From a virus (lineage: Duplodnaviria > Caudoviricetes), in IMG/VR virus record IMGVR_UViG_3300034104_002149, positions 1-37,686 of that record: 37,686 nt of DNA, one strand, 5' to 3'. Of this stretch, positions 4,866-37,622 are shown piece after piece; within the stretch, counting starts at the first letter, position 1; every line of letters begins with the position of its first letter. Position numbers and translations under genes: made by a program. The notes under the pieces were generated by a model. The model worked only from the letters and a program-made list of their open reading frames with translations. It was not told the origin of the DNA and ran no database searches.

Positions 4866-5395
4866 TGGCGTTGCCTGATTATTTCAAAGTCGAGCAAGGT
4901 ACTGCGATTATCTGGGGCGAAGCAGGAGCTAGCGGCGTTACCCACACGCTGTCGTTCGACGGATTGGCCAACGGTTCGGCGATTCAGGGAGAATACGCAG
5001 ACCTTGGAGTAGATTGGGATCAGTGGTACATCGTCTACCCAAGAGTTGAAACCGGAACGGCTCCGACTGCGCAAAACACTGTCGATTTCTATCTCGTTTC
5101 GAATTACCAAACGACAGATTGGCCGGCTAAGATGACCGGATCGGCTGGTGCTTACACGCTAGGCACTTCGGATGCCAACCTTAGGCAAGCAGGGCCAGCC
5201 GTAGCGTCGCTGGTGGCTACTGCTGATGCTGATACGGTGCTAATTCAGGCTCCTGTTTTGTGGCGTCCATTGGGTCGCTATGTCGCTCCAATTGCAGATA
5301 ACAATCTAGGTCAAGCTATCCGCGACGAAGGCACAGCAACAAACAACGGATCGCGGCTAATCATTATTCCTTACCGTGAGTTCATCAAGGAATAA
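4865..5395 (+). CDS. Hypothetical beta-rich virion-type protein
   Basis: 176-aa ORF with TAATG coupling on both sides. Confidence 0.7.
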   Translation: MALPDYFKVEQGTAIIWGEAGASGVTHTLSFDGLANGSAIQGEYADLGVDWDQWYIVYPRVETGTAPTAQNTVDFYLVSNYQTTDWPAKMTGSAGAYTLGTSDANLRQAGPAVASLVATADADTVLIQAPVLWRPLGRYVAPIADNNLGQAIRDEGTATNNGSRLIIIPYREFIKE

Positions 5396-7775: not shown

Positions 7776-7777
7776 CC

Positions 7778-17211: not shown

Positions 17212-19006
17212 ATGTCCGCATTGCGATCAGTATTGCTCGAATGACATCCGACCCTATGTCTGCTCGTGCGGTGCCGTTTTTGGAAAGAATGGGTGGATTA
17301 CGACCATTACCGTAAAGCGAAGCATTAGTAAAAACTTGCACGACTACCATACAAAAAAAGCTTTGGACGGTCGAAAGGCTTGGTCGAAGCTGCATCGGAT
17401 CGAGCATGGAACGCCTGAACTATTCGAAGATTTCAAAAAGTACATGCCCGGCGGGTGCGAGTGCAAGAAGAAGGTTGATGCGATACTCAAGAAGATTCCG
17501 CCTCGCTACGGATCACCAGAAGAGTGGTTTGAGTTTACAGTCGAGTTTCACAACGAGGTGAATTTAACGCTTGACAAGCCTACCGTATCGCTGGATCGAG
17601 CCTACATGCTTTGGCGCAATCGAAGACCTAGCACCGGGAAAACCCGAGCTGTCATCACGGTGGCAAACGGCGTGGAGTTTTCGCAGATACTTGCTACAAC
17701 CAGATCGCACATGCAGGCTTATGCTGACAGGGTAAACGCCGATCTGATCGACCTGGACAACGACACTGAGACTTGGGGGCCGATGGAGAAATTCAGGGTT
17801 TACGAGTTTGCTAAGCAGTACGATGAGGTGATGTTTGTGGATGCCGACTGCATCATCACCGAAAACTGTCCAGACTTATTCAGCATGTTCAAGGGCGATG
17901 TGGTGATCCATGACGATTACGGTGTTTTGAGATCCCCGTCGATCATCAATGAAGAGCGCAAGAGAGTGTCCAGGCTGTCCGGAGTGGATATTCCGATACT
18001 GGAGACGGCCTTCAACACTGGTGTAGTGATCACTCGCGGAGAGGCAAAGCACATCTGGATACGACCGACTGTTGAAATAGGAACGTCTCGCTTCGCCGAA
18101 CAAGTGTGGATTGAAGGTCACATCAATCGCAACAATTTCCGCGTTGACGCGCTACCGCACCAAGCCAATTGGCAGTATTGGTACGGAAAGCACAGCCAGC
18201 CAATAACGCCATTTGAGGATGGTGTTCGTGGCGCATGGATAGTACACGCCTCAGCCAGCACGCAAAAGCTTTCGACGGTCAAGAGGGTTTCTGACCACCT
18301 TTCGATCAAGAATCCTCAGCCTCCGATAAGCGGACTTACTGCCGTGACATCATTGTCGCTTCTGCCGCATCACATCAAGGTTCAAGAGCGATGTTTGCAG
18401 TCTTGGGTGGATATGGGATTGAGGGTTGTTGCTGGAAACTCTGAGAGAGACATTGCTCAGTTGCGGGAGATCTATCCGTATGTCAATTTTGTACCTTGCC
18501 GACAGTCTAGTTCTTACGATCGACCGACTACGAGGATTTACGATCTTTTGCATATTGTTTCCGGAGCGTTTTTGCTGATAAATTCAGACATTGAGATGCA
18601 CGGATCGCAGTCGATACTGCTCGACGCGTTAAAATCCAGGGAAAGACTGATAGGACTTCGGCACAATTACGATCACGGGATATTTGAAACAAACATCGAA
18701 AGATGGGGAATTGATGCGTTTTTATTGTTCCCAGAGGATGTAGAATCATTCCCAGACCTGGATTTTGCGATCGGGCAGACAATGTGGGATTGGTGGGTTC
18801 CGATTCACTTAGAGAGCATAAAAGCCAAAATACGTTGGATTGGCGAGCCGTTTTTCTTCCATAAGTCGCACCCAGTTCACTGGAAACAGGAATCCCTGCA
18901 AATTGGCAGGGAAATGCTGCATCAGCAGTACAAAGTTCCAGTTGAGCACCCGTATTGGGAGTCTTGGAGGAAAGACAGACCGTTTAGCGACGGGGTTGCG
19001 ATTTAG
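17174..19006 (+). CDS. Fusion protein: Cys-cluster N-terminus, Erv1/Alr sulfhydryl-oxidase-like domain, two GT-A glycosyltransferase-like domains
   Basis: Erv-like motifs GRKAWSKLH, PGGCEC and WFEFTVEFHNEVNLTLDKP. The first GT domain has MFVDADC, FNTGV and EQ (GT8/GT34-like). The second has LLINSDI, GIDAF, WDWW and HKSH. Confidence 0.75.
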   Translation: MTAVQEKTVGSCKCPHCDQYCSNDIRPYVCSCGAVFGKNGWITTITVKRSISKNLHDYHTKKALDGRKAWSKLHRIEHGTPELFEDFKKYMPGGCECKKKVDAILKKIPPRYGSPEEWFEFTVEFHNEVNLTLDKPTVSLDRAYMLWRNRRPSTGKTRAVITVANGVEFSQILATTRSHMQAYADRVNADLIDLDNDTETWGPMEKFRVYEFAKQYDEVMFVDADCIITENCPDLFSMFKGDVVIHDDYGVLRSPSIINEERKRVSRLSGVDIPILETAFNTGVVITRGEAKHIWIRPTVEIGTSRFAEQVWIEGHINRNNFRVDALPHQANWQYWYGKHSQPITPFEDGVRGAWIVHASASTQKLSTVKRVSDHLSIKNPQPPISGLTAVTSLSLLPHHIKVQERCLQSWVDMGLRVVAGNSERDIAQLREIYPYVNFVPCRQSSSYDRPTTRIYDLLHIVSGAFLLINSDIEMHGSQSILLDALKSRERLIGLRHNYDHGIFETNIERWGIDAFLLFPEDVESFPDLDFAIGQTMWDWWVPIHLESIKAKIRWIGEPFFFHKSHPVHWKQESLQIGREMLHQQYKVPVEHPYWESWRKDRPFSDGVAI

Positions 19007-21443: not shown

Positions 21444-24400
21444 ATGAGTGATTTTCTTGAGTTGTTTAAGAAAAGGCTTCAAGAAAGAGAGTCTGGAAGC
21501 TTGGCAAGTTTTCCAGCACAGGAAAGCAGCGGGACTCCTGGCTCCCTTGGGGCTCCACCTCAAACGTATGAAGACCCTCGCGAGAGGGCGATCATGGAAA
21601 AAAGAACCAAGGACTCTGGCAACGACTTTCTTGATTTGTTTTCGTTGAGATTAGCAGAGAAGCAAATTGAAAACCGTCGCCAACAGCGAGCCTACGCCGA
21701 GAAAGCACCAAAAGAGATTGTTGAGCCAACGAAGCAGATGCTTGCAAGTCGCAAAGATAGAAGCAAGCTTCTAGAGGTGTATCGAAAGTTGACACCCGAG
21801 CAGAGGCAAGAGGCTCTTAGAGTTGCTCCTGGTATTGGGCAGCAAATGGGCGACGATCGCGGAGGGATGCCATCTCGGATTGCCGAGTCTTTTGGTCTTG
21901 GCATCACGCAGATGGTTTCGCAACCGTACATGGAGCTTGCTGGCACTGGTGGAACAAAAGAAGAGATTGAGTTTATTCGCAAGCTTGATGCGATCGCCGC
22001 ACAAGAGTTTGATCCGGCTCTTCCGAGCGATCCTTGGTACGAGAGAGGGCCGCTGCAAGCCGCTCAGATGACTCCATGGATGGCAACGATTGTCGGAAGC
22101 GGTGGTCTGGGGGGTGTGATTGGGAAGGGTGGTGGAACACTGCTGGCTAGAGGTGCTGCAACGGGCGTTCCTGGAGCCAAGACGGCGTTCCAGACGGCTG
22201 GTGCTATCGGTCGAGTCCCAACTGCTATTGGATTAAAGGGAGCGACGACAAAAGGCGTTTTCCAGGGTGCTGGCACGCTCGCTGGCATCACAGCGGCGGG
22301 TTTCCCTGGCATGTACGCCCAAGAGGTTGACCAGCTCAAAGAGCTCGGAATGGAGGACGATTGGAAGTTGCGATTGCTTGCCGGTGGAACGGCGGTCGTT
22401 GGTGGTGCGGTTGAAGGCATTATCCCGAATCCGTTTGGCGGTAAGGTTAATTTTACGCAGGGCGCCATGAAGGCGGCTCGCCAATACCTATGGGAGTCGA
22501 TCAAAAAAGCTCCCGCTGAAATGTCCGAAGAATACATACAGGGCGTGACAAGCGGTTTGGGTGAGCACATCGCGCAGTACATCGCTGACGAGAAGGAGAT
22601 CGATTTTGGCGACGGGGAGAAGGTCAAGAGCGGCGTAAAGAAGAAGTCGATCGCCGACGCGTTTGCGAAAGGCTGGGAGCAGACCAAGGAAGCCGCTTTG
22701 CCAATGGCGTTTCTTTTGGGTGTACCTGCTGTTCCTGGTGCTGGACTTGCCGCTAGAAAAGCAAGGCTGTACGAACTCGAGCAAATAAGGGCTAAGCGTT
22801 TCGTGTCCGAAAAGGACGCTGAAGAGGCTGGCATTGAGGGTGACAACCGCAAGGAGCGAATGGCTAACCTGGAAGCCGAGGTTAATCGGATCACGCAGGA
22901 AATGCAGAGTCAGCCAAGTCCAGATGCGGAAATCGCGTCCATGGTTGGCGAACTTCCTCCCGAGACCGGCACCGTCGATCAACAGGGAGTTGTCGATCGA
23001 GATCCGTTTGAAGGGGAGGCTGGTCAGCCGCAAGTCGAAGCACCGATCACACCTGCCCCGCTTTACGAGGTCGCTGGTGATCAGAACATGGTGGCTAGGG
23101 TCTGGCAGAATCCTCAAGGGTTCTTAGTGAACCTCACGGATATAGACTCCGGTGAAGTGTTTCCGACTGCAAGCATCTTCCCGACGTTTGAGCAAGCAAA
23201 GCAGCACGCCGATACTGTTCGGTTGCCACAGCAGTCTCAGGTTGCACCGCCTACAGCCGGAGATCCGTTTGTGGAAGGCGAACAGCAGCAGGGTGCTCAG
23301 CAACAGACTCCAGCTTCGTTTGCAGCGCGGATGGCTAGAGGCGAGCAGATGACTTTGCCAGAAGATCAGCAGTATCGCATAAACAACGCAGCAGAGATTG
23401 AAGCCGAGTTGCAAAAGCTGATGCCGCCAACTGGAATAACGGCATCGCAACCACCAGCCGCACAAAACCCGTTTGAACCTGGAGTTTTACCACCACAAGG
23501 AGAAATCCCCGATGCCAGCGCAATACGAAGCCCTCAAGAGGAAGTACGACAAGAGCAAGGCGGCGCAGATCTACGTGGGTCTGGGCAAGAGCAAGTACCA
23601 GCGCAGCCAGAGAGCCAAGAGCCTCCAGCACAAGCGGAAGTACAAGTAGGGGAACTTCCAGAACCAAAGTCGGCGGAAGAAGTCGAATCGCTTCCAAAGT
23701 TCTCGCTTTACAAAACTACCGTTCAAGGCAAAGACTACATCGCCATTCGAGGGGATGGGCGAAGGGGTGGCGGCGACGAGTTGTATGAGTCTTTTGAGGA
23801 AGCCTCGCAAAAGGTGGAATCCAGGAGGTCTCAGGAGCAAGCGGCTATCGAAGCTGCTCAGAAGAAAGCCGAGCAGGAATCCGCTGCTGCGGAGGAACGA
23901 TCTAAGAATCTACCGTCGTATCGAGACTGGAGGTTTAACTCGACAGCAAGAAACTCAGGGAAGATCGTTCCTAATAAGGTCGGCGTAAAGTTCCTGCCGG
24001 ATCAAATGCAGTCGATCGCAAACTGGGCAAAGTCACAAGGTTTCTCGGTTTCAAACGTCACGCCAACTGGAATCAAGGTTCTCGATCCATCTGGCAAACG
24101 CTTGGACATCTCCATGTACGGTGCTGCTGGAGTCAAGGACGAAAAGGCAAAGGCAGCTAAAGCACAACAAGAAGCGGATCGCCGTAAAGCTGATGAAGAG
24201 CGCAAGAAAAAGACTGATAGCCGAAAGTCTGCGTCGTGGATTACAGAGACATTCGGCGGTGTGATAAACGACTATAACCGTAATGCTCTTTCTGATTTTC
24301 TTGAAGGAGACACCGACAAGTTCAAGGGTATGGTGTCCGCAAATTGGAGATCTGGGCTTGAGAAGGTTGGTGCCTTGAGTCCAGAAGGCAAGATCGATTG

Positions 24401-27400
24401 GGGTAAGGTCAAGTCAGCTTATGCCTCAACCGAACAGGCGGCAAAGCCAGAGACCGGCGAAAAGCCGCAAGCAGCGTCTCAATCAACTAAACCTTTGGTA
24501 GTCAAGCAGCGACTCAAGAATGCGGTGCGATTTGCTCCCGATACGGTGATTCCCGAGGGCGTTCCGTTTACCAGAGGCAAGCACCCTGCGTTTGGTGATT
24601 ACATCGAGGTTTTCAGTTCTCACCTCGATCGCATTCCTGGCTACTCAAAAGATCTGCCATCGGAGGGAGGTAGAACGCAAGCAAAGGTTCCATCAACGCC
24701 ATCTGAAATGGAAGCTGAATTGAGGGAACGTGTCGTCGAAAAAGTACAGCTAATGTATGACACGAAAAACTGGAACGAAACTGGCATTACCGCTGTGATC
24801 AAAACCGCCGTTGATGCTGAGTTTGGCGCTTTGACTACCGAAGTCGCCTACGCTGGAGACATTTCTCCAGAGTTGCGAGACTGGATCAACGGTTTCAATG
24901 CCAGCGAGTTCACCGGCATGGTGCGATCTTACCTTGGAAGAAATGAATCCAAGCCAGTGGCAACTGAGAAGTCGCCTGCTCAAAAACGAGACGAACGTCT
25001 TGATGAGTCAGAGGAAGCCCGCTTGTTTAGCGAGAACTTCATTAAAATTGTAGCCGATGACGTTTCCAAGATACGCAAGCAAGATATTTATCGATTGCTG
25101 TCGGAAGTCCCCAGCGAGCGAGCTGGCTATTTCGAGTGGTGGCTGATCAGGAGGCGTCCAGATCTGGCTGGAGAAATCAACGAAGCATCCAATGAAATAC
25201 TCGCTGAAAGAGCATCGCAAAAGAAGCCAGCCGCAGAACAGCCTCAAGCAGAAGGCGAGATGAGCGTTGAGGACTTCGTTAATGCTTTTGCTGGAACAAA
25301 GCAACCTGAGCCCAAAAAAGGCAAGAAGCCTACCCCTGTTAAGGCAGAGCCAGTAGCAGAGGAAAAAACGGAATACAGTGAACTAAAGCAGAATGTGGCA
25401 GGCATCGCCAGAACGATTCGAGCCATCAAAGGCAAGGATGTCCTGTTAATTGAATACAGCAAGTATTACTACACATGGTCAATTAGGAACGTTGACTCCA
25501 AGCAGGACATTGCCGGTGGAATAACCGATCTTAAACGCGCAAAGAATGTTGCCGAACGAATCTTTGCAGGCACGTTTGATATCGAAGCAGACAAGCGATT
25601 CACCATCACGGACACTCAGAGTTTAGCCTACTCGAACCAGAAGCTTGCAAGCTTGTGGGACGACGCTGGAAGGGCGATGCGTTTTGTTTCCGCCCTGCGA
25701 GATACTGGTTTCTACACCGATGGCAGGGTACTGATCAAGGTTTCTGAGAAGGACAGGGATGCGATACTAAAAAGCTCGAAATTGTCTGGAGAGACATTTC
25801 CTGCTCAAATCCAGGGAGTCATCGATTCCGCTAAAAAGCTTTCCAGTTACAGCGACAACGAAATGTCTCCTGCTGGTTATCGCGGGGGCGAATTGTCCAT
25901 AAGGACTGCCGTATTGAAAAACAAGACTGGTCAGTACGCAATTGTAGACAAGGCGTACCATGACACGATTATGAAGCGTCACCCGACAGCTAAGATATGG
26001 GGTAGCGAGGACAAGGGGCAAGCGATCAAGCAAGCGGTTCTTTACACGGTCGACGGCGAGCCCGTAGGTGTGCTTATGCCTATGGCGGCAGACAAAGAGG
26101 ACAAATACCTCACCGCGCTACTAGAGGGTAAGTACGAGGACGTAAAACCTACGGAGGCAGTCCCGCCAAAGAAACCAAGGACGCTCAAAAAAGAGCCGAA
26201 AGAAGGCGTTAAAGAGGGTCTGGACAAGGCTAAAGAGGGAGCCAAGCTGTTTATCGAGGGTATCAAGGACGCTGCCAAAGGCAACACTCCGTTTGCGAAC
26301 ATCCCGATGAATGAAAAGATCGCTCGCGGTCTTGGAATGATGGCTGACGGTCTGATTGAGGCTGGCAAGTACAAATTTGTCGACTTCATTGAATCGGTAG
26401 TGGAACTTGTCGGCATACAGAACGCCAGAAGCTATGCAAAGTACCTTGAGGCGGGTTGGAACAAGAAGGCTGAGTTTGACGATCGGCTCGATCAATCGCA
26501 GAGTGTTTTGGCTCTACTGGAAGAAAAGGAAACGGAAGATGGAAAGCAACAAGGTGAGCGTGGATCCGATCAAAACCTCCCAATGGGAGATGGCACTGGA
26601 GAACCTCAAGGAGATGGAGCCAGAGGCGACTCGGCAAATGATGCGGAACGGGACTCTAAAAAAGGAACTGGACCGCAGGGTGATCAGGTACTTCCAACTG
26701 ACGCAGAAACTACAGGCGTCGATGGACGAGGAGGCGGCGAACGAGACGGCACAGATGGAAGTGTTGACGCCAATCAACCCGAGCAAGGATCGACAGAAGG
26801 CACTGACGGAAGCGGAGGAACTACAGATAAGCAAATGGGCGGTCGGGTTGCAGTCAACCACGTAATCTCTAGCGAGGACGATCTGGCGGTCGCGAGTGTC
26901 ACGGAAAGCCTAAAGCGAAACATCAAGGCTTTGCAGATACTCAAAAAGCTAGAAGTAGACGGCAGGTTTCCAGACGAGTCGGAACGCAAGTCGCTGGCTC
27001 AATACACTGGTTGGGGTGGACTTTCGCAAGCTCTTGACTCGATAAAGGGGGAGCGAATGCTCCAGGGGTCATGGAACAGAGATGAAAACTGGGAGAAGAA
27101 ATGGGGTGACTCATACGTTAAGCTAAAGGAAATTCTAACTAAGGAAGAGTTCCAAGCCGCCCAAAACAGCACCGAAAACGCTCACTACACAAGCAAAGAT
27201 GTAATCCAGTCTCTTTGGAAGATAGCAGAGCGACTTGGGTATAAGGGCGGACGGGTTCTTGAGCTCGGCGCTGGAGTTGGTCACTTTGCTGGTCTTACAC
27301 CTTCGAGAGTTCGCGGTGTTACGCAGTTTACGATGGTCGAGATGGACAGCATTAGCAGTCGCATTGCCAAGATGCTTTATCCTTCGCACGACGTATTTTC

Positions 27401-30400
27401 TGGTGATATGCAGCAGTTTAAGGCTGTCCCTGGAAGCGTTACGATTGGCATCGGGAATGTTCCGTTCGCAGGCGGAACGGTAGCTGATTCCAATAAGCGA
27501 TACGGGGAGCCACTAAACCTTCACAATTACTCGATCGCCCGCCATTTAGATGCGTTGGCTCCAGGCGGGGTAGTTGTGGTGATTTCATCGCACAACACGC
27601 TAGATTCAAACATCAAGCAGAGAAAGCTACTCGCGTCCAAAGGTGAGTTGATTGGGGCGATTCGCCTGCCCAATGACGCATTTGCATCTAACGCAAAAAC
27701 CGAAGTCGTTACGGATATCCTCGTGTTTCGAAGACCGAGACAAGGAGATCCTGCGATCGGAGTACGGTTCGATCAGAACGTAGACATTACTGTAAAAAAC
27801 AAGGACGGTAAGGATGTAACTAAGCAGATCAATCGGTATTTTGTTGAAAACCCAGAGATGGTTTTGGGTACTCACTCTGCTAAAGGTTCGATGTATGCCG
27901 CAGATGAATACACCGTAGAAAGTACGCCTGGGGACTTGCAAAGCAAGATCAATGCAGCGATCGAAAAACTTCCGAGGGATATTCTCGGGACTGTATCAGT
28001 TGCCGAGTCAGTTGTCGCTACAGATGCGTCTATCCCGTTCGGAAGACTCGAAATGCGGGGCAAAAATGTTGTTATGGGCTACGGCGATTCGTTTACACCA
28101 ATAGCCGGAAAGAAGTTTGAAGGTTTTCCAGTTGACCTAACAGGTAAAACTGGTGTCGCGAGAGCTAAAGACTTTATTGGGTTGCGAGATGCGTTAGCCT
28201 TAGCTAGAGAGACTATGCTAAGCGAAGAAGCATCCGAAGATGACGTTAAAAGCGCACAGAAAAAACTTGGGGACGCATACGATAAGTACGTGGAAAAGCA
28301 CGGCAATCTGAATGACAGAAAGACCAGTATATTTAAGCGCGATCCGGATTACTATCGTGTCCTCGCCTTGGAAAACGAAAAAGGAGAGTATGACCCAGCT
28401 TCCAAGAAGATAGTCATAACGTACAGCAAAGCGTCTATTTTCACGGAAAGGGTCTTGGGGCCGCAGAGGGAGCCGACATCAGCAGCAAGCCCTGCCGATG
28501 CAATGTCAATTTCTCTAGCATGGAAAGGCGCTATAGATTCTGCTTACATTGGAAGGCTGTTGGGCTTAGACGCAATCGAAGCCGAGGCGAAGCTTATCGA
28601 AGAAGGTCTAGCGTTCAGAAACCCATCCACAACGCAACTAGAGATGTCTGACCTTTACCTAAGCGGAAACGTCCGGTCGAAACTTGAGCAGGCTAAAATT
28701 AGTGCCGAGGAAGATCCGCAATACCAAAAAAATGTCGATGCGCTTGAAAAGGTGTTGCCGGAACCAGTTGCGCTTAAAAAGGACACAGTGCGTCTTGGAG
28801 CAACGTGGATACCAGAAAACGTCATATCTGCATTTGCCGCACAAGCATTCGGTACTGAAATAGGAGTGTCTTACAATGCGAATACCGACTCCTGGACGGT
28901 AGGTACTCCTTACGGTATTTCGGAAACAGCAAAAGCAAGGTATCAGACTGAAAGAATTAGACCGCATGAAATTCTTGCCGAACTTCTGAATCTGCGATCC
29001 ATAAAAGTTTTCGACAAGGTTGAGACTGGCGAATCTGACAGTTCCGGTAGACCGAAGACTACGCAAGTTTTGAACGAAAAAGAGACGCAAGCCGCCAAGC
29101 ACAGGGCTTCTGTTATGCGAGCAGATTTCGAGAAGTGGGTTCTCGAAAACAGAGACGTTTCTCAGGTACTCGCAAAGATTTACAATGAAAGATACAACAA
29201 CTTCGTTCGTGCTAAATACAACGGGGATTTTTTAACGCTTCCTGGATCGAATCCGGAGGTCAAGTTACGTCCGTATCAAAAGGACGCAATCTGGAGGATT
29301 ATCAATCGCGGAACCGCCCTTTTGGCTCACGCTGTTGGAAGCGGAAAGACCTATACAATGATCGGCGCGGCGATGGAGATGCGTAGGCTCGGTATCGCTC
29401 GTCGCCCGTTGCTAGTCGTTCAAAACGCAACGCTCGGTCAGTTTGCAACCAGCTTTCAAAAAATGTATCCAAATGCCAAGGTTCTTGTTGCAACAAAAGA
29501 AGACCTTGGGAAAGGCAAGCGTCAGCTTTTCTTAAACAAGATAAGCACAGGTGACTGGGATGCTGTTGTCATGGCGCAGAGCACTCTGGACAACATGGCA
29601 TCTGATGAGAATGTTGAGCGTGCGTTTATTCAGGATCAGATAGACTTGCTCGAAGAGTCGATAAGAGAAGAAGGCGGGGCGCATTCAAAAACACCAACGG
29701 TCAAACAACTGGTTCGACAAAAGAAATCACTACAGGACAGGTTCGACAAGTTAATGGGAAGTCGAGCCAAGAAAGGAGACAACGTTGTATTCGAGGACTT
29801 GAATGTAGATGCGTTGTTTTTGGATGAGGCGCATGCTTACAAGAAGCCTACTTTTGCAACCAAGCTGTCTAACTTGGTTGGACTGAACACCGAGTCCAGC
29901 GCGAAGTCTTTAGCGACGATGATAAAAGTTAGGTCTGTTCAATCAGCCAACAACGGTAGAAACGTGATCCTTGCCACGGGGACTCCAGTAACAAACACTC
30001 TCGGTGAAGCATGGCACATGGTCAACTATGTTTCTCCAGCAACAAACGCGGCGTTTAACTCGCGAACCTTCGATCAGTTTATCAGCAACTTCGCTATGGT
30101 TGAGCCAACGTTGACAATGAACGCCGGTGGACAATATGTCTACAAAGATGCTATTGTAAAATTCAGAAACGGCAGGCAACTCGTTGAATACATTAACGAC
30201 AGTTGGGATATTGTAACTCCGGAAAACTTGCGGGCTTACATGGAAAGCAACAAAAAAGGCTTTCCTGTTTTGAGGAACGGAAAGCTTACCGCAATAACTG
30301 TTGATAGAACTCCTGGCGTAGCAAGCTTCATGGCGTTTATAGAAAGCGTTTATGCTAGATACAAGAGCCTAAAGGCTAAAGAAAGAAGGGAGTTAAGTTT

Positions 30401-33400
30401 TATACCGGCTTTGGCTTATGGAGCATCAAAGGCAGCCACCCTGGATATTCGGCTAGTTAGACCAAACGCAGCGGAGGAGAAAAACTCAAAACTCCAAGTT
30501 GCTGCCGATGAAATAACGCGAATATACGAAGAGTCGATGGAAAACAAGGGAACGCAACTTGTGTTTTCTGATGTCAAGAATCCGTACAGCATGGATCGCA
30601 TAAACCAGTTCATGGGCGGAGAGGCTATAAGCGCCTTTGAGGTTGACGATCAGATGGAAGGCGATGTGGTTGCTGAAGAGGCTCCAAGCGACTCCGACAG
30701 CTTTTTGTATCAAGAGTTAAAACGAAAGCTTCTTGCTTCTGGCATTCCTAGTGAGCAAATAGCGTTTATCTCTGATGCAAACACGGACGCAAAGCGACAG
30801 GCGTTGTTTCAAAGGGTGAACAATGGCGATGTGCGAATCTTGATTGGAAGTACCTCTAAAATGGGGGTTGGTGTCAATGTCCAGCAAAAGCTAGTCGCAA
30901 TACATCATTTCGACACCCCTTGGTTGCCAGCCGACCTTGAACAGCGAGAAGGGAGGATCCTGCGGTTCGGCAACGAAAATGAAATCGTAGAGGTGCTTCG
31001 GTACGCCATGAAGAAAACGCTCGATGGAGCTATCTACATGGGAACATCGAGAAAACAGAAGTTTATCTGGCAAGTTTTGAACGGTCAGCTTGATTCTGAC
31101 ACGTTCGACGATCCTTCGAGTGCTTCGATGTTAAGTATTGAAGAACAGCTCGCGGCGATTCAGGACGACCCAGTGTTCTTCGAAAAGATTGAGGTTCAGA
31201 ATAGGCTGCGAGAACTCGAACTTGAGCGACAATCGTTCTTTGATGCGCAACAAAGAGTTGCTGATTCTTTAAGGAACACCGAAAGCGATTTGAGATACAG
31301 AAGGGACTCGATAATCCCTCAACTTAAAAGCAGGCTGGATCGGATCGGTGAGATAAAAAAGAAAATCGAGGACGCTGGCGGATCGCTTGATGCGTTCTCA
31401 GCTAGGATAGACGGAAAAGACTACACTGACCCCAAAAAAGCCGATGAGGCTGTAAAAGCTAAGCTTGAGGAGGCTAAAAGGTATGTAGCCAAAAACTTCG
31501 ACAGCTTGCAAACTGTTTTTGCGGCTGGCGGATTGCTAAAGCTTAGCAGGAATCAATTAGTGACGTTTACTATTGGGCCTGCAAATGTAGCAATTGGGCT
31601 TGAGCCAATGTATATGCAAGAGCTTAACGACGAAGGCAAGGAGGTGACAAAAGCAGTCGCAAGGGCTAGGTCTATCGCTTACTTGATCGAGCCTTCCGGG
31701 GACTACATTTTCTACGAAGGCAATGCTACCGTCCCGGCAACATTCTTCGAAAAGATGGGCAATGTGCCCAATGATGTTAGGAGAGAAATAGAGAATAGCG
31801 AGGATTTGGTAGTTAGGTATGAGTCAAAGATAGCTGAGTTGAAAACACTACTTGGTAAGCAATGGGAAGACGAAGCAGAGTACCAGGAAAAAACTGGTAG
31901 ACTTTCGGAAATCGAAGCGATAATGCTTGCAAGTGGCGGTTCTCTCTCGGAAAAGAAAGCTGACGAGAAAACCGAAAATGAGCCGGAAGGAGATTCGGAT
32001 TTAGACAACAACCTCCGCAACCTCCCGCCACCGCTTTTCCAGACCGCCCCAGACGTAAACGAGAATATGTGGTCGGAGGCGTTGAACCTCTCCATCGCCG
32101 CTCAGGACGCTGGAATCAAGAGCCTACGCGACTTCGTTGCCTACTCGGTCAAAACCATTGGTCGCGATCGCACGTTGCAGGTGAGCCGTTTCCTTCGCTT
32201 AGCGGCAGAAGTCGCAGGCATGGATGGTGTACAGCAGGCGGCAGCCGTCTCGGGCATCACACGCGATCAAGTTGTCACGATGGCAAAGAGGGCGTTTGGC
32301 AAGAGGCTGTCCGAAGATCAGATTGAAACTGGAGTTACGATCGAGGACATCACCGCGTTCGGCAGAAACGAGATCGGATTTGCTCCGTTCGGAACGCCGG
32401 TGCCTGAAGAGGCGATGGCACAAGAAGATTTCGACCAACCATCGGGCTACAAGTTCACCGAGAGCGAATACCGTCCTGCCGTCGTGTCATACGCTCGCGA
32501 CAAGTGGGGTGAGAAGATTGCACCAAACGGTAAGCCGACATGGCAAAACTTCGTGCGGTGGTTTGGTGATAGCAAGGTGGTGGACAAGGACGGAAAACCT
32601 CTGGTTGTGTATCACGGAGGCGCAAAAACAATAGACGGCAATACTGTTCGCACGCCGTTCTTTTACATGACCGCCAACAGGTCTGAAGCGGAATACTGGG
32701 CGGGAGAAAACGGCAGAGTTCACGAGGTCTACCTGAAGTTCACCAAGCCATATCGGGACAGTCAGCACGACGACCGATTTATGGATATGGAGGAAAGAGC
32801 GCAAGATTACGATTGGGACGATCCCGAGTTTGCCGAAGAACTGCGAGAGGTGACGAGGGAAGCTGTATCTCGGATGAATGAGTTGAAGGGTCAAGGGTAC
32901 AACAGCATTGTGATGCAGGGGGAAGCAGATGAGAACTACGACAACTTCATTGCCTTCGACCCAACCCAAATCAAATCAGCAACGGGTAACGCTGGCACGT
33001 TCGACCCAAGTAATCCAAACATGCTCATGCAGAGGGCAACACAAACCGACACGCCAGCGTTCAAGGCTTGGTTTGGCGATAGCAAGGTGGTGGATGAGGA
33101 TGGAAATCCATTGGTGGTTTACCACGGGCGTGCATCTGGATACGATATTTTGAAAGGGGGAATGGGCGTCCGAACAGGACTTCACAGCGAGGGTATCTGG
33201 TTCACTCCGAACCCAGACTTTGCTTCCGAGTTTGCTGAATACGCACTACCGGAGGGTGGTGCTGGTCCAAACGTAGTTGCGGTTTATCTTTCAATTAAAA
33301 ACCCTGCGACTGTATACAACGAAGAACTTAGGTACGTGCGAGTCGCTGACCTGAAAGCACAAGGGTACGATGGCGCGTATGACGCTCAAACAGGAGCGTG

Positions 33401-36400
33401 GATCGCTTTTGACTCGGAGCAGATCAAGTCGGCCACCGGCAATCGCGGCACGTTCGACCCGAACAACCCTAGCATCTTGATGCAGAACCAACAGCAGGGT
33501 GGCAGCGTCAAGGGCTGGACGAAGTTCATCAGCGCACATCGAGCATTGATCGGAGCGACAAGCAAGGCAGACTTCTCGACGTTCATCCACGAGTTCTTCC
33601 ATCCGATGCGACTGTTCCTGCTCAACAAGAGCGTGCCAGCCGAAAAGCGTGCCGACATCACCGACGAGGAAATCGAAGCGTTAGAGAAGGCGAGCGGTGC
33701 TGGAAGCTTTGTGAATGGCAAATGGGTAACGAAGTGGGATGTGAAGGCGGAAGAAAAAGCCGCCAAGATGTGGGAGCAGTATTGGTATGAGGGTGACTCT
33801 CCGAATAGCGTCCTCGATTCTTTGTTCCAGAAAATCTCCCGTTGGATGCGAGAAGTCTACAGTGGCATTCAGGAAATCACTGGAACGCCTCTCCCCAAGG
33901 AAATCCGCGATCTGTTCGACAAGTTGGTTCAGCGAGGGTTGCCAGCCGACCAGCGTGGCGGCAAGGGCGGCGAGCCTGTTTCCAGGGGCGAGCCCGTCTT
34001 GCGTCCAGTAGACCCAGTGACGAGCATCAAGAACGAGGTGGCTAACCGAATAGCTCTACTTCGAGGATCCCCCGGGCTGGTGGAACCAGAAGCCCAAACG
34101 ATGGACGAATGGCTAGAGGAGGCTAGCAACAGGCTTAGGCAGGATCCAACCCTCGGAGATCGACTGGTTAAGGAATTGGATGCTGATCCTACAGGCCCAG
34201 ACCAAATTGACACAGCGGTCTTGCAGATGCACTACCGGGGGCTTAACAACGCTCTCTATGCGGCTCAGGATCGATTGTTTGCAGCTAAAGACCGAAAGGA
34301 CAGCGTTGCCGCAGCCAAGGCACTCAAGGAGGTTGATGCGATAACAAACTCCCTTGAGGAGATAGAGCGAGTCAACAAAAAGATCGGAACTTTGCAAGCA
34401 AGATCGTTTGCAGCTAGGAAAATCACGCTATATGCAGATTTCTCTCGCGCTGCATTGGAACGGCAAGGAAGGGCTGCCAATGGCGGTGAGAGGCTGAACG
34501 AAGAGCAATTGAGGCAAATTGCTGAACTGGCTGCGGAACTGGCGAAGGTTCAGGGCGACTTGGCGAAAGCCGAGCAAGTGATTGCCGACCTTCAACGGCA
34601 GGATGGTGTGCGTCAAGTGGTCGACGACGACTTGAAGAAAGCACCCAAGCCTAAAGCCAAGAGCGAGCCACGGCAAAAAGCCGCCACGGCAGTGCAGAGC
34701 TTCGTCAAGAAGTTCTCAAGCATCTTCAAGCCCAAGAATGGCTCTGACACGCTGATGCAGACCGAAGACGAACGAATGGCTGAAGAAGCCGAGAGCGTCG
34801 TCATGGCATACGTCGAAGCTGGCGTATTCTCCTACGGTGAACTGCTAGCCAATTTGCGCAAAGAGATAGGTGGCGAACTGCCTGTTCAGGCTCAGGCGGC
34901 TTTTGCGACCGCATGGGAGAAGATCAAGGCGCAAGGTGAAATCCCGATTCCTATGGTCAGCCCTGGGGATGTTGAGGGGCTTACCCGTATCGCTCGTGAG
35001 ATCCAAATAGCGATTATTGAAAGCGGAATCGTCACGGCGGATCAAGAAGACCGTGCCGAAGTCGTCCTCGATGCAGTCTGGAGATCGCTCCAAGAGATCG
35101 ACCCAGAGATCACCGAGCGGCAGACAATGGATGCGCTGAGTGGATACGGGCAGTTTACGCCGATTTCCAAAGACGAAATGAAGCGACTGCAACGCGACAT
35201 CAATGGTCAGTTGCTCCAAATGGCGAAGATCAAGGACTTGGAAGCCGATATCCGCCCCAAGGCTACGGGTGCTCAGCGTCGTGAAATGTCCGACGAGGAA
35301 CGAGCGTTGGTGCGACAGGTCAATGAATTGAAGCGCAATAGCAAGCTCTATACCGAGGATGAGCAGGGGCTCTTGACGACAGCAATCGGTGCGGCAATGC
35401 GGGCTACGAAAAACCGCATCAGGGATTTGCGCAAGGCTATGGATGAAGGCAAGCCGATCGCCAAGACGCAGGTAGACTTGGCGAGCAAAGACAAGGATTT
35501 GGCTGAGCAAAAGCGAATCCTGGCGGAAGTTACCAAAGACTACCGCGAGATGTTTCCTCGGCAGGGAGCGACCAAGGAGCAACGGCTTGCAGCAGCTCTC
35601 AGGGCTACCGATCGGGAGATCGAAAGGGTTACGGAACAACTCCGCACCGGAGATTTCTCGCCTAGAGGTCGTGCTGAGCCCGTAACGAGCGCAGAACTGA
35701 GAGCCAAGCAAGCAGAGCTCGAATCGTTGCGTGCTCAGAGGGACGCGATTAAGGCACAACAGAACCCCAAGATGAGCCCTCAAGAGCGAGCAGAGGTAGC
35801 TTATATCGCCAACCTGAAAAACAGGATTGCGGATTACGAAGATCGCATGGCGCACGGCTACTTTGGAGCAAAACCCAAGAAAGCACCGCTTGAAAGCGAC
35901 GAGATAACCAAGCACAGGAGGCGGCTTGAGGAAAAGAAAGAGGAGTTCTTCCGTTTGGCGGCAGAATGGCGATTGTCGCAGTTGAGCCCCAAAGAGAGGG
36001 TTTTTGACTGGGCTCGGGAGATTTCATTCCTGGCAAGAGCGATTATGACATCCATGGACTTGTCGGCGGTGTTCCGCCAGGGCGGCCCAGGGACGTTCGC
36101 CCACCCAATGCTTGCTAAAGAAGCAGCAAAGGAAATGCGACGGGCTATCTTCAGCCAAGAGGAAGAGTTTAATATCGCCGAGAACATCAAAAAGCACCGG
36201 CTTTATCCACTTGCCGTACAAACCAAGCTAGATATCACAACAAGTGCCGGAGCGATTCAAAATCAAGAAGAAGCTTTTTACGGTCGCTGGGCACGGGACG
36301 GCATTGGCAAGAAGGGCACAAAGATCAACAAGATCAGCAAGGCTGTTTTGACACCTGTTGCAATGTCTGCGAGGGCTTACACGACCTACCTCAACGGCTT

Positions 36401-37622
36401 GCGGTTCCGGCTGTTTGTCTACTTCGTCGATACCCTCGGGGCTAACGGCCAAGTGACGCTGGACGAAGCCAAGGCGATTGCCAATTTTATCAACGTATCG
36501 ACCGGCAGAGGGGACTTCGGGAGTTTTAACAAGGTAGCCGCAAACCTCAGCACCGTCTTGTTCGCACCTAGATACCTCGCATCTCGCTTCGCATATCTAG
36601 GGTTGCCGTTCTACATGCTTCAGGATGCCAAGGTTTCCGGCAGGGTTAAGCGGCTCATCGCCATGGAGTACGCTCGGCATGCCCTCGGTGTGGCTGGATT
36701 CCTAGCAACCGCCGTGGCACTCGGAGGATTACTGTACGACGACGATGACGAGGAATCGCCAACCGTCGAACTGGATCCGCGATCGACCGACTTCATGAAA
36801 CTCAAGATTGGAGAGACGCGAATCGACCCGCTGTCCGGCTTTGGTCAAATCGCTACGTTCATCTCGCAAGTTAGCCTTGGCCAGAAAAAGACGATGGAAG
36901 GCGAGATCATTGACATTCGCGGTGAGAAGAAGAAGTACGGGCAAGACGGCACATTCGATGTGACAGCCAACTTTATCCGCAAGAAACTCGCACCGATCCC
37001 CGCCGCTGGCATTAACATCATTGCCGGCGAGGATGTTGTTGGCAACAAAGCAACGGTAGCCACAGCGACCACAGGACTGTTCATTCCTCTGGCTGCACGG
37101 GAAGTCGTTGAAACGCTGATGGCTCGTGGTGTGCCAGAAGGCCCAGCGATCGCCATGCTGAACATCCTCGGGATGAGCGGTGGAACTTACGGCCCAAAGA
37201 CCAAGTACAAAAACGCCAACGCAGAGGAACGCAAAAAGCTGATCGAGAAGGATCTCGAAGCGATGGAATGGGACTCGAAGGATCCAGGCTACAAGGACTT
37301 CTTGACCAAGGACGAGCTTGAGCGATTCAAGCAGCGACGAGAGCAACGCAAGCAATCGCTAGTCTACTCTGCTTCAGCCAACCCGAAACGCAAAGACTTC
37401 CAGGACGACACGACCTACGCCAAGGCTGTTGCAGAGAGAGACAAGGCACTCAAGACCATGGTTGATGGAAAGATCGGGCCAGAAGAGGCAAGATTGCTAC
37501 TGCTGGCATACTGGCGCAGGAACAACAAAACCCTGTACGAGCGCAAAGGTCAGGTGCTTGTGATGAAGGACGCATTGGTCGAAAGATTGCGTCAAATTAC
37601 GCAAAAATTGAATCAAAAATAA
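21444..37622 (+). CDS. Giant polyvalent virion-associated protein (5392 aa): DarB-like N6-adenine MTase, SNF2 helicase, two ART-like domains, HExxH motif, C-terminal LPD-type helical region
   Basis: Uninterrupted 16.2-kb ORF. MTase motifs ELGAGVG (27261) and GNVPF (27453). Helicase motifs LRPYQ, HAVGSGKT (29328), DEAH (29823), TGTP and QREGRILRFGN. WFGDSKVVD..G.PLVVYHG occurs twice, and HEFFH is at 33588. Confidence 0.9.
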   Translation: MSDFLELFKKRLQERESGSLASFPAQESSGTPGSLGAPPQTYEDPRERAIMEKRTKDSGNDFLDLFSLRLAEKQIENRRQQRAYAEKAPKEIVEPTKQMLASRKDRSKLLEVYRKLTPEQRQEALRVAPGIGQQMGDDRGGMPSRIAESFGLGITQMVSQPYMELAGTGGTKEEIEFIRKLDAIAAQEFDPALPSDPWYERGPLQAAQMTPWMATIVGSGGLGGVIGKGGGTLLARGAATGVPGAKTAFQTAGAIGRVPTAIGLKGATTKGVFQGAGTLAGITAAGFPGMYAQEVDQLKELGMEDDWKLRLLAGGTAVVGGAVEGIIPNPFGGKVNFTQGAMKAARQYLWESIKKAPAEMSEEYIQGVTSGLGEHIAQYIADEKEIDFGDGEKVKSGVKKKSIADAFAKGWEQTKEAALPMAFLLGVPAVPGAGLAARKARLYELEQIRAKRFVSEKDAEEAGIEGDNRKERMANLEAEVNRITQEMQSQPSPDAEIASMVGELPPETGTVDQQGVVDRDPFEGEAGQPQVEAPITPAPLYEVAGDQNMVARVWQNPQGFLVNLTDIDSGEVFPTASIFPTFEQAKQHADTVRLPQQSQVAPPTAGDPFVEGEQQQGAQQQTPASFAARMARGEQMTLPEDQQYRINNAAEIEAELQKLMPPTGITASQPPAAQNPFEPGVLPPQGEIPDASAIRSPQEEVRQEQGGADLRGSGQEQVPAQPESQEPPAQAEVQVGELPEPKSAEEVESLPKFSLYKTTVQGKDYIAIRGDGRRGGGDELYESFEEASQKVESRRSQEQAAIEAAQKKAEQESAAAEERSKNLPSYRDWRFNSTARNSGKIVPNKVGVKFLPDQMQSIANWAKSQGFSVSNVTPTGIKVLDPSGKRLDISMYGAAGVKDEKAKAAKAQQEADRRKADEERKKKTDSRKSASWITETFGGVINDYNRNALSDFLEGDTDKFKGMVSANWRSGLEKVGALSPEGKIDWGKVKSAYASTEQAAKPETGEKPQAASQSTKPLVVKQRLKNAVRFAPDTVIPEGVPFTRGKHPAFGDYIEVFSSHLDRIPGYSKDLPSEGGRTQAKVPSTPSEMEAELRERVVEKVQLMYDTKNWNETGITAVIKTAVDAEFGALTTEVAYAGDISPELRDWINGFNASEFTGMVRSYLGRNESKPVATEKSPAQKRDERLDESEEARLFSENFIKIVADDVSKIRKQDIYRLLSEVPSERAGYFEWWLIRRRPDLAGEINEASNEILAERASQKKPAAEQPQAEGEMSVEDFVNAFAGTKQPEPKKGKKPTPVKAEPVAEEKTEYSELKQNVAGIARTIRAIKGKDVLLIEYSKYYYTWSIRNVDSKQDIAGGITDLKRAKNVAERIFAGTFDIEADKRFTITDTQSLAYSNQKLASLWDDAGRAMRFVSALRDTGFYTDGRVLIKVSEKDRDAILKSSKLSGETFPAQIQGVIDSAKKLSSYSDNEMSPAGYRGGELSIRTAVLKNKTGQYAIVDKAYHDTIMKRHPTAKIWGSEDKGQAIKQAVLYTVDGEPVGVLMPMAADKEDKYLTALLEGKYEDVKPTEAVPPKKPRTLKKEPKEGVKEGLDKAKEGAKLFIEGIKDAAKGNTPFANIPMNEKIARGLGMMADGLIEAGKYKFVDFIESVVELVGIQNARSYAKYLEAGWNKKAEFDDRLDQSQSVLALLEEKETEDGKQQGERGSDQNLPMGDGTGEPQGDGARGDSANDAERDSKKGTGPQGDQVLPTDAETTGVDGRGGGERDGTDGSVDANQPEQGSTEGTDGSGGTTDKQMGGRVAVNHVISSEDDLAVASVTESLKRNIKALQILKKLEVDGRFPDESERKSLAQYTGWGGLSQALDSIKGERMLQGSWNRDENWEKKWGDSYVKLKEILTKEEFQAAQNSTENAHYTSKDVIQSLWKIAERLGYKGGRVLELGAGVGHFAGLTPSRVRGVTQFTMVEMDSISSRIAKMLYPSHDVFSGDMQQFKAVPGSVTIGIGNVPFAGGTVADSNKRYGEPLNLHNYSIARHLDALAPGGVVVVISSHNTLDSNIKQRKLLASKGELIGAIRLPNDAFASNAKTEVVTDILVFRRPRQGDPAIGVRFDQNVDITVKNKDGKDVTKQINRYFVENPEMVLGTHSAKGSMYAADEYTVESTPGDLQSKINAAIEKLPRDILGTVSVAESVVATDASIPFGRLEMRGKNVVMGYGDSFTPIAGKKFEGFPVDLTGKTGVARAKDFIGLRDALALARETMLSEEASEDDVKSAQKKLGDAYDKYVEKHGNLNDRKTSIFKRDPDYYRVLALENEKGEYDPASKKIVITYSKASIFTERVLGPQREPTSAASPADAMSISLAWKGAIDSAYIGRLLGLDAIEAEAKLIEEGLAFRNPSTTQLEMSDLYLSGNVRSKLEQAKISAEEDPQYQKNVDALEKVLPEPVALKKDTVRLGATWIPENVISAFAAQAFGTEIGVSYNANTDSWTVGTPYGISETAKARYQTERIRPHEILAELLNLRSIKVFDKVETGESDSSGRPKTTQVLNEKETQAAKHRASVMRADFEKWVLENRDVSQVLAKIYNERYNNFVRAKYNGDFLTLPGSNPEVKLRPYQKDAIWRIINRGTALLAHAVGSGKTYTMIGAAMEMRRLGIARRPLLVVQNATLGQFATSFQKMYPNAKVLVATKEDLGKGKRQLFLNKISTGDWDAVVMAQSTLDNMASDENVERAFIQDQIDLLEESIREEGGAHSKTPTVKQLVRQKKSLQDRFDKLMGSRAKKGDNVVFEDLNVDALFLDEAHAYKKPTFATKLSNLVGLNTESSAKSLATMIKVRSVQSANNGRNVILATGTPVTNTLGEAWHMVNYVSPATNAAFNSRTFDQFISNFAMVEPTLTMNAGGQYVYKDAIVKFRNGRQLVEYINDSWDIVTPENLRAYMESNKKGFPVLRNGKLTAITVDRTPGVASFMAFIESVYARYKSLKAKERRELSFIPALAYGASKAATLDIRLVRPNAAEEKNSKLQVAADEITRIYEESMENKGTQLVFSDVKNPYSMDRINQFMGGEAISAFEVDDQMEGDVVAEEAPSDSDSFLYQELKRKLLASGIPSEQIAFISDANTDAKRQALFQRVNNGDVRILIGSTSKMGVGVNVQQKLVAIHHFDTPWLPADLEQREGRILRFGNENEIVEVLRYAMKKTLDGAIYMGTSRKQKFIWQVLNGQLDSDTFDDPSSASMLSIEEQLAAIQDDPVFFEKIEVQNRLRELELERQSFFDAQQRVADSLRNTESDLRYRRDSIIPQLKSRLDRIGEIKKKIEDAGGSLDAFSARIDGKDYTDPKKADEAVKAKLEEAKRYVAKNFDSLQTVFAAGGLLKLSRNQLVTFTIGPANVAIGLEPMYMQELNDEGKEVTKAVARARSIAYLIEPSGDYIFYEGNATVPATFFEKMGNVPNDVRREIENSEDLVVRYESKIAELKTLLGKQWEDEAEYQEKTGRLSEIEAIMLASGGSLSEKKADEKTENEPEGDSDLDNNLRNLPPPLFQTAPDVNENMWSEALNLSIAAQDAGIKSLRDFVAYSVKTIGRDRTLQVSRFLRLAAEVAGMDGVQQAAAVSGITRDQVVTMAKRAFGKRLSEDQIETGVTIEDITAFGRNEIGFAPFGTPVPEEAMAQEDFDQPSGYKFTESEYRPAVVSYARDKWGEKIAPNGKPTWQNFVRWFGDSKVVDKDGKPLVVYHGGAKTIDGNTVRTPFFYMTANRSEAEYWAGENGRVHEVYLKFTKPYRDSQHDDRFMDMEERAQDYDWDDPEFAEELREVTREAVSRMNELKGQGYNSIVMQGEADENYDNFIAFDPTQIKSATGNAGTFDPSNPNMLMQRATQTDTPAFKAWFGDSKVVDEDGNPLVVYHGRASGYDILKGGMGVRTGLHSEGIWFTPNPDFASEFAEYALPEGGAGPNVVAVYLSIKNPATVYNEELRYVRVADLKAQGYDGAYDAQTGAWIAFDSEQIKSATGNRGTFDPNNPSILMQNQQQGGSVKGWTKFISAHRALIGATSKADFSTFIHEFFHPMRLFLLNKSVPAEKRADITDEEIEALEKASGAGSFVNGKWVTKWDVKAEEKAAKMWEQYWYEGDSPNSVLDSLFQKISRWMREVYSGIQEITGTPLPKEIRDLFDKLVQRGLPADQRGGKGGEPVSRGEPVLRPVDPVTSIKNEVANRIALLRGSPGLVEPEAQTMDEWLEEASNRLRQDPTLGDRLVKELDADPTGPDQIDTAVLQMHYRGLNNALYAAQDRLFAAKDRKDSVAAAKALKEVDAITNSLEEIERVNKKIGTLQARSFAARKITLYADFSRAALERQGRAANGGERLNEEQLRQIAELAAELAKVQGDLAKAEQVIADLQRQDGVRQVVDDDLKKAPKPKAKSEPRQKAATAVQSFVKKFSSIFKPKNGSDTLMQTEDERMAEEAESVVMAYVEAGVFSYGELLANLRKEIGGELPVQAQAAFATAWEKIKAQGEIPIPMVSPGDVEGLTRIAREIQIAIIESGIVTADQEDRAEVVLDAVWRSLQEIDPEITERQTMDALSGYGQFTPISKDEMKRLQRDINGQLLQMAKIKDLEADIRPKATGAQRREMSDEERALVRQVNELKRNSKLYTEDEQGLLTTAIGAAMRATKNRIRDLRKAMDEGKPIAKTQVDLASKDKDLAEQKRILAEVTKDYREMFPRQGATKEQRLAAALRATDREIERVTEQLRTGDFSPRGRAEPVTSAELRAKQAELESLRAQRDAIKAQQNPKMSPQERAEVAYIANLKNRIADYEDRMAHGYFGAKPKKAPLESDEITKHRRRLEEKKEEFFRLAAEWRLSQLSPKERVFDWAREISFLARAIMTSMDLSAVFRQGGPGTFAHPMLAKEAAKEMRRAIFSQEEEFNIAENIKKHRLYPLAVQTKLDITTSAGAIQNQEEAFYGRWARDGIGKKGTKINKISKAVLTPVAMSARAYTTYLNGLRFRLFVYFVDTLGANGQVTLDEAKAIANFINVSTGRGDFGSFNKVAANLSTVLFAPRYLASRFAYLGLPFYMLQDAKVSGRVKRLIAMEYARHALGVAGFLATAVALGGLLYDDDDEESPTVELDPRSTDFMKLKIGETRIDPLSGFGQIATFISQVSLGQKKTMEGEIIDIRGEKKKYGQDGTFDVTANFIRKKLAPIPAAGINIIAGEDVVGNKATVATATTGLFIPLAAREVVETLMARGVPEGPAIAMLNILGMSGGTYGPKTKYKNANAEERKKLIEKDLEAMEWDSKDPGYKDFLTKDELERFKQRREQRKQSLVYSASANPKRKDFQDDTTYAKAVAERDKALKTMVDGKIGPEEARLLLLAYWRRNNKTLYERKGQVLVMKDALVERLRQITQKLNQK
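23512..23649 (+). CDS. Nested +1-frame small basic protein (45 aa) inside the giant gene
   Basis: AAGGAG at 23497-23502, a 9-nt spacer, ATG 23512 and TAG 23647-23649. Translation: MPAQYEALKRKYDKSKAAQIYVGLGKSKYQRSQRAKSLQHKRKYK. The host frame here is a low-complexity Q/E/P linker. Confidence 0.6.
   Translation: MPAQYEALKRKYDKSKAAQIYVGLGKSKYQRSQRAKSLQHKRKYK
26539..26865 (+). CDS. Nested +1-frame TnpV-like helical protein (108 aa) inside the giant gene
   Basis: AAGGA at 26526-26530, 8 nt before ATG 26539. Translation: MESNKVSVDPIKTSQWEMALENLKEMEPEATRQMMRNGTLKKELDRRVIRYFQLTQKLQASMDEEAANETAQMEVLTP... The host frame is a G/D/E/R-rich disordered linker over nearly the same span. Confidence 0.65.
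   Translation: MESNKVSVDPIKTSQWEMALENLKEMEPEATRQMMRNGTLKKELDRRVIRYFQLTQKLQASMDEEAANETAQMEVLTPINPSKDRQKALTEAEELQISKWAVGLQSTT
32547..33485 (+). repeat. Tandem duplicated ADP-ribosyltransferase-like module within the giant gene
   Basis: Two units (about 32547-33032 and 33045-33485) with near-identical ends: TGGTTTGGyGATAGCAAGGTGGTGGA at the start and QIKSATGN.GTFDP.NP..LMQ at the end. The middles are divergent. Confidence 0.85.

Follow-up and report, generated by a model that had tools for sequence, protein, structure and literature searches.

A conserved small gene nested in the +1 frame of a giant DarB-like phage gene, directly ahead of its methylase domain, and its possible role as an enzyme helper

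Does the Gly/Asp-rich linker ahead of the methylase domain of a giant DarB-like phage gene carry a second protein-coding gene and, if so, what might its product do? We addressed this question in a virus sequence of 37,686 nucleotides (the window, which is a whole linear IMG/VR record with an estimated completeness of 59%) that is contained in runs from lake and freshwater metagenomes. Every long open reading frame (ORF) of the window lies on the plus strand, and the last is a 5,392-codon giant (21444..37622, +), both halves of which matched the 'DarB-like antirestriction' family phrog_10089 (E = 1e-179 and 2.6e-228). Motifs placed a helical domain followed by an adenine methyltransferase domain at 26859..27830 (+, ends approximate), with YTGWGG at host residue 1854 in the former and LELGAGVG (1939) and GNVPF (2004) in the latter; the helical domain is probably LPD36, a name suggested by its GXGU motif and by the position described in the main text of PMC5512222. 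Motif IV of this methyltransferase is NVPF rather than NPP(Y/F), a variant also found in P1 DarB and in 23 of the 54 related loci surveyed below. Downstream lie an SNF2-type SF2 helicase/translocase (29259..30971, +; Pfam PF04851, PF00176 and PF00271 above their cut-offs), with a Walker A motif at host residue 2628, DEAH at 2794 and a Helicase_C domain, and an ART-PolyVal domain, the better of two stretches of which spans 32583..33002 (+; PF18760, E = 6.9e-41). By phrog_10089, motifs and Pfam, the giant therefore joins in a single chain the LPD36-like domain, adenine methyltransferase and SNF2 helicase that make up a DarB-type dyad. Elsewhere in the window, we observed a subtilase-family protease (1862-2806), a protein with a laminin-G/concanavalin-like domain (5395-6210) and a protein with a weak, below-cut-off Erv1/Alr-like thiol-oxidase match (17174-19006), all upstream of the giant.

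An earlier note on this DNA had proposed that a small TnpV-like gene is overprinted on the linker, and its observation was confirmed, its interpretation in part. An AAGGA box resembling a Shine-Dalgarno sequence (26526..26530, +) stands 8 nt before an ATG at 26539, from which an ORF of 108 codons runs in the +1 frame relative to the giant (26539..26865, +; stop TAA at 26863-26865); the box is identical to that of the gene at 942, to which it had been likened, although the spacing there is 6 nt rather than 8. The nested stop falls, as had been stated, within the host residues V-N-H-V-I, where the methylase region starts. The stop-free stretch around the ORF (26401-26865, 154 codons) is the longest in the whole +1 frame of the giant, which holds 213 stops in its 5,392 codons. 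Across the overlap, the host frame (26538..26864, +; residues 1699-1807) is a Gly/Asp-rich linker, in keeping with the change in composition that had been described (24% Gly and 14% Asp, with large hydrophobic residues at 9% versus 29% elsewhere in the giant). Lake-metagenome contigs from two other studies matched the window here with 0-1 differences and no gaps (X2 covering 26430-27000 in two pieces and X4 covering 26405-26741), so the overlap is not an assembly slip. A search of 26000-27200 for sigma-70-type promoters found none (0.6 expected), and none of the 24 runs listed was an RNA dataset containing the window.

Other features of the giant were observed alongside. By eye, the host frame apparently contains three copies of a helical domain that shows a motif resembling 'I-E-A-G-x-x-x-F-x-x-F' (close to host residues 1636, 3553 and 4456, at window positions of roughly 26270-26500, 32030-32250 and 34740-34960), and this domain immediately precedes the nested ATG in many relatives. 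A 45-codon basic ORF at 23512-23649, also in the +1 frame and with AAGGAG 9 nt before its ATG, overlies a Gln/Glu/Gly-rich host stretch; no relative of it was found in the related loci examined, and the closest relative of the window (locus L036) has no such ORF in the part covered. It is on this ORF that the general strategy of absorbing small genes, suggested by the earlier note, would depend. The second-longest +1-frame ORF (32224-32634, 136 aa) has a weak start context and no Pfam match, overlies a conserved host domain and looks like a chance frame.

The two frames of the overlap differed strongly in their constraint. Between the window and L036, whose methylases are 80% identical, the nested frame had a dN/dS of 0.36 (57% identity), compared with 1.37 (44% identity) for the host frame over the same bases. 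The frame-specific dN/dS check that had been proposed was applied to 20 pairs, which share members and of which one had no differences; the nested value was below the host value in all 19 informative pairs, indicating purifying selection in the nested frame (0.10-0.55 in 18 pairs and 0.91 in the most distant pair; host frame, 0.89-2.43; methylase control, 0.01-0.39 in pairs where it was computable). A lake contig approximately 86% identical to the window told the same story at the level of single changes: among the 40 listed of its 81 differences, 26 fell within the ORF before a compensated indel, 18 of them at third positions of nested codons, and 17 were silent in the nested frame (5.7 expected; none of 3,001 simulations was as high), while 3 were silent in the host frame (7.8 expected). 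In this variant, the nested stop has changed from TAA to TGA, and termination is thus kept. The host frame, for its part, is held open: from codon usage, 7.0 stops would be expected across the nested gene and none was seen (P of about 2 × 10−4), and over 22 loci 111.9 were expected and none seen, a count that shows codon avoidance and not frequency, these loci having been pre-selected for open host frames. By comparison, 26 free-standing TnpV genes average 6.8 stops in the corresponding frame. Together, these results confirm, at the level of sequence, that 26539-26865 is a real gene, conserved and protein-coding, that sits within the giant in its +1 frame: a whole coding sequence within another, in a shifted frame, with a start signal of its own and with both frames maintained. 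The nesting part of the 'overprinted' proposal is thus real, but the constrained frame is that of the small gene, and the host linker is free in sequence and merely kept open; the word suits the linker better than the small gene.

To what extent is this arrangement shared? We surveyed 54 loci with this methylase, comprising 11 viral contigs, 21 cultured-phage records (chosen among 60 listed of 115 matches), 21 genome contigs and L036, which entered the set through a search with the small protein; the set includes some duplicates, and one of the two profiles used was seeded with eight of the viral loci. The conserved +1-frame ORF that the earlier note had suggested looking for upstream of the methylase was recognized by profile in 50 of the 54 loci (20 of the 21 cultured phages and 18 of the 21 genome contigs), with no profile match in any other frame or strand of these loci, and it was found in all five Lessievirus records examined. 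Not one of the 21 cultured-phage records annotates it as a gene. Four loci gave no profile match (L016, L045, L048 and L052): L048 covers just 694 nt upstream, the giant of L052 has no N-terminal arm, and the other two carry +1-frame ORFs at the usual place that neither profile recognized (L016:1157-1429 in phage 8P, 90 aa; L045:3459-3968, 169 aa), being either very divergent members or replacements. In the record of Sinorhizobium phage PBC5 (L020, about 620-630), a one-base shift approximately 14 codons ahead of the nested start breaks the giant in two, orf33 (which ends in the nested frame) and orf23. In eight close relatives the host frame continues uninterrupted there, and the shift is probably a single-base slip in the PBC5 record. 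Three further observations concern individual loci. The record of Pseudomonas phage Itty13 (L022, MW460249.1 3986-8458) lists only two coding sequences, on the opposite strand to the DarB-like gene, and leaves the methylase-bearing frame unlisted over 3986-8458; L038 has an in-frame TAG in the host arm approximately 185 codons before the methylase, at a position that is Glu in close relatives, with an intact nested gene; and the closest named genomes with this methylase type (L037, L038, L039 and L046) are Planctomycetota assemblies, which hints weakly at the hosts that this group of phages may infect.

A reverse survey, in which viral sequences were searched with a profile of eight cultured-phage nested proteins, that is, with the small protein alone as query, recovered 76 viral loci (69 distinct). 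In 72 of these (65 distinct), the gene is nested and a methylase follows 236-908 nt downstream in the same host frame; the remainder are one PBC5 locus, one with a broken host and two at a contig edge, and no free-standing copy was found among the 76. A GGAG, GAGG or AGGA box precedes 59 of 64 nested ATGs in viral loci, compared with 182 of 3,180 other ATGs in the same frame. A broader profile of 11 nested proteins matched 243 clusters at E ≤ 0.001. Querying viral sequences directly with the window's protein returned a single match, L001, which was rejected as false because its frame is stop-ridden, and scans with the protein P0007 and with a DUF1896 protein found nothing.

Consistent with the ordered helical product that had been anticipated, AlphaFold2 predicted a five-helix fold (residues 14-26, 28-37, 40-58, 64-76 and 91-106) with a pLDDT of 90, and the protein is acidic, not basic, in nearly all relatives. 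The window's protein alone had no convincing Pfam or PHROG family match, Foldseek of the model against the PDB gave none at E ≤ 0.001, and an HMM search of PDB sequences returned just designed repeat proteins and weak coiled coils. The top BFVD row, Q8W6J4_2 (probability 1.0, TM 0.59, E = 0.065), was dropped as independent support; it appears to be half of the 2,185-aa PBC5 orf33, which contains the nested frame. From the ESM Atlas came unnamed clusters (0.86-0.90) and a cluster at 0.82, 11% of whose members are TnpV; this serves as a lead only.

Is the small protein then TnpV-like, as its sequence pattern had suggested? At the superfamily level the link held, but the window's protein itself is not a Pfam TnpV, having no PF14198 row at E ≤ 1 (the Pfam cut-off is 27 bits). 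In the profile comparison that had been proposed against TnpV, the nested family aligned by hhalign to a profile built from 14 free-standing TnpV genes with probabilities of 95.6% (E = 1.2e-8, 45 columns) and 96.9%. PF14198 was matched at E ≤ 0.1 by 30 of 85 relatives (best, 2.7e-7), the next family by 3 of the 85. We examined 36 canonical TnpV loci from Clostridia genomes (two fragments were left out): 10 are nested in the +1 frame of long ORFs, the N-terminal parts of which match methylase-helicase giants, and 26 are free-standing without a methylase within 1.5 kb. In nine loci of Clostridia elements, canonical TnpV lies 2.1-3.2 kb upstream of the methylase.

A second family came to light through structure. 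The best solved-structure match of the model was 2apl, the DUF1896 (PF08989) protein PG0816 of Porphyromonas gingivalis, which ranked first of 48,161 (Z = 6.1, rmsd 3.3, 66 residues; the next had Z = 4.2), with a Z that is under the tool's safe mark for helical proteins and a Foldseek E of 8.2. The window's protein had no PF08989 row (Pfam cut-off, 25 bits), nor was that family among the 25 listed for the 85 relatives. Against DUF1896 subfamily 2 the nested-family profile reached 92.3%, where a reversed control gave 0.2% and the highest-scoring of 29 block shuffles gave 5.0%; against the PG0816-type subfamily 1 it reached just 2-5% and 5.1%, the two subfamilies matching each other at 81.8%; the nested-family HMM also matched three subfamily-2 proteins (E = 1e-9 to 8e-8, Z = 1000). 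With a Z of this size and a profile match to one of two subfamilies, we regard the DUF1896 link as moderate and weaker than that to TnpV. A relationship to Tad5 was set aside, having appeared as a single weak match on one DUF1896 protein (E = 0.0045) and being absent from the 25 families listed across the 85 relatives.

The genomic setting of DUF1896 bears on how the nesting may have arisen. DUF1896 occurred in 12 of 401 Bacteroidota genomes, and its 14 distinct loci share one layout: DUF1896 forms a gene by itself and is immediately followed by a DarB-type methylase with a separate start and without an N-terminal arm (the methylase was identified by tblastn in 12 loci and by eye in 2); in 8 of the 14, the DUF1896 stop overlaps the methylase start by 14 nt, and the two subfamilies track two Bacteroidota methylase subclades. 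The earlier suggestion that giants absorb small neighbours fits these separate pairs, but the methylase tree, which is unrooted and has unsettled bootstrap support, gives no direction and is compatible with either nesting or a separate gene coming first. Read-through of the upstream arm across the small gene is the simplest story, given that the constraint lies in the frame of the small gene and that this gene has free-standing relatives; the tree agrees equally well with an arm that was lost in Bacteroidota.

What, then, might the small protein do? What we infer of its translation, binding and function runs as follows. Ribosomes would start at the internal site on the mRNA of the giant, yielding both proteins from one message, and the host frame would cross the nested gene as a disposable linker; the small helical product would bind the methylase-helicase module and hold the enzyme in a soluble, inactive state inside the producing cell until its delivery alongside the DNA, the same helper gene serving phages, with delivery by the virion, and conjugative elements, with delivery through the transfer channel. 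According to PMC5512222 (main text), DarB-type proteins are delivered with the DNA of the element and are thought to methylate it while translocating. P1 DarB has been shown to be packaged in the virion and to protect DNA from type I restriction, and the JC1 homologue is present in virions (PMC9144972). Across three kinds of mobile element, the small gene keeps its place before this single enzyme module, and a role shared by phages and conjugative elements favours hand-over over DNA excision; since an enzyme of this kind would have to be kept soluble and silent where it is made and then handed over on both routes, a chaperone or brake is our first choice. We therefore favour, at about even chances, a dedicated helper that likely binds the methylase-helicase module and is probably a chaperone or brake. 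Structure prediction for the nested protein with host residues 1804-2605 gave complex scores of 0.27 and 0.25, against a mark of 0.32. The 26 free-standing tnpV genes, together with P1 (which has no PF14198 match and an unrelated Ulx), indicate that the pairing with the methylase is not absolute.

Several other explanations deserve weighing, two of which concern whether a free protein is made at all. A chance open frame, a mere shadow of the host linker composition, would agree with the missing family match of the window's protein and with the existence of an unsupported second long frame at 32224-32634; it is refuted by the frame-specific dN/dS, and the Shine-Dalgarno enrichment, the stop kept as TGA, the confident fold and the free-standing homologues leave it a negligible probability. 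A programmed frameshift into the +1 frame, by which the N-terminal arm would end in the TnpV-like domain instead of or besides the free protein being made, is exemplified in form by the PBC5 fusion of orf33 and by the few database proteins that carry the domain at the end of arm-like sequence (P0081, P0124 and P0150). We consider this most improbable in view of the open host frames of the eight close PBC5 relatives, the ribosome-binding boxes before nearly all nested ATGs and the many loci in which a +1-frame stop lies 2-12 codons before the ATG, leaving little room for a shift site.

The other two concern what a free protein would do. It could be packaged and delivered with the giant as an accessory subunit that works in the new cell, for example by switching on or aiming the methylase. 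The same context evidence (50 of 54 surveyed, 14 of 14 DUF1896 and 72 of 76 viral loci) suits such a subunit, as does P1 Ulx, an internal virion protein that acts with DarB and is needed against type I restriction (PMC12810830). In the text of PMC9144972, no Ulx homologue was found in Bcep22-like phages and such helpers are expected to exist, and all five Lessievirus records carry the nested ORF. Against this stand the lack of a sequence link to Ulx (the nested protein was rejected as a homologue at an hhalign probability of 0.2%) and the JC1 record, which does not list the nested ORF; although the data are compatible with a chaperone, a brake and a co-delivered subunit alike, we hold the last to be a possible but distinctly less likely reading. 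Less likely still, and in our view doubtful, is an independent role in moving or regulating the element, with the place beside the methylase reflecting inherited gene order. The protein fold is predicted to be all-helical, unlike lambda Xis, a winged-helix protein; it is acidic in nearly all relatives; and adjacency is kept across phages, Clostridia elements and Bacteroidota despite differing upstream arms, none of the 76 viral copies having moved away. Such a role would find support in the many canonical TnpV genes that stand alone and in the small mobilisable transposons in which tnpV sits, where an aid to excision like that of lambda Xis has been postulated (PMC3158075).

Returning to the helper of the methylase-helicase, we tentatively propose, as a possibility somewhat short of even, a wider scheme in which TnpV, DUF1896 and the hidden phage family form one superfamily of dedicated partners of DarB-type methylase-translocases, acting as a chaperone or inhibitor to keep the enzyme in check up to its delivery into a new cell and encoded as a separate coupled gene in Bacteroidota and swallowed whole into the linkers of giants in phages and Clostridia elements. 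If this were true, the free-standing tnpV of small mobilisable transposons would act in trans on the enzyme of a helper element, borrowing or blocking its protection, and two families of unknown function, TnpV and DUF1896, would gain a shared, testable job. The present findings add an unannotated gene to cultured phages including Bcep22, BcepIL02, DC1, JC1, PEp14, VvAW1 and Atu_ph08, and its product is probably a part of DarB-type antirestriction that has so far been overlooked in phages other than P1. They also offer a clear natural example of one protein-coding gene, held by purifying selection, being traversed by the linker of another, with a single frame relation kept across phages and conjugative elements.

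How does this locus compare with its closest known kin? With the TnpV of Tn4451/Tn4453-type transposons (PF14198), the window's protein shares the core L-x-H-L-x-E-x-x-P-x5-L-x3-G-x-L-x3-L, and canonical TnpV is likewise nested in the +1 frame of Clostridia giants (for example, L042 at 46.7 bits, above the 27-bit cut-off); however, only about 45-48 columns align, the window's protein has its own C-terminal P-x-N-P segment and last helix, and its gene lies in a phage rather than in a serine-recombinase transposon. DUF1896 genes adjoin the same kind of methylase upstream, as does the window's nested gene with its stop at the methylase start, but they are separate and start-stop-coupled, and their products are about 145 aa long with a C-terminal half that is not clearly shared.

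Among better-studied systems, the products of the phage spanin genes Rz and Rz1 interact. Rz1 lies entirely within Rz and shares its strand (PMC9144972), whereas the host of the present gene is an enzyme gene of 16 kb, the part overlapped is a linker that can be dispensed with, and the nested gene has free-standing homologues. Like P1 DarB, the window's giant has GNVPF in its adenine methylase, which it joins to the GXGU helical domain and the SNF2 helicase, as in the methylase-helicase dyad of polyvalent proteins (PMC5512222); P1 DarB differs in starting almost at the methylase, with no PF14198 match in P1. Ulx, a small protein encoded next to darB, offers a functional precedent but comes from a separate gene downstream of darB. 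We found no description of the nested gene in the literature on DarB, TnpV and nested or overlapping genes that we covered, the scope of which excluded most subscription papers, and the main text of PMC5512222 has no occurrence of TnpV, overlap or frameshift. Embedded genes and small DarB helpers are known kinds; the widespread, unannotated nested gene ahead of the DarB-type methylase adds a further form of the first and, with the function that we propose for it, probably of the second.
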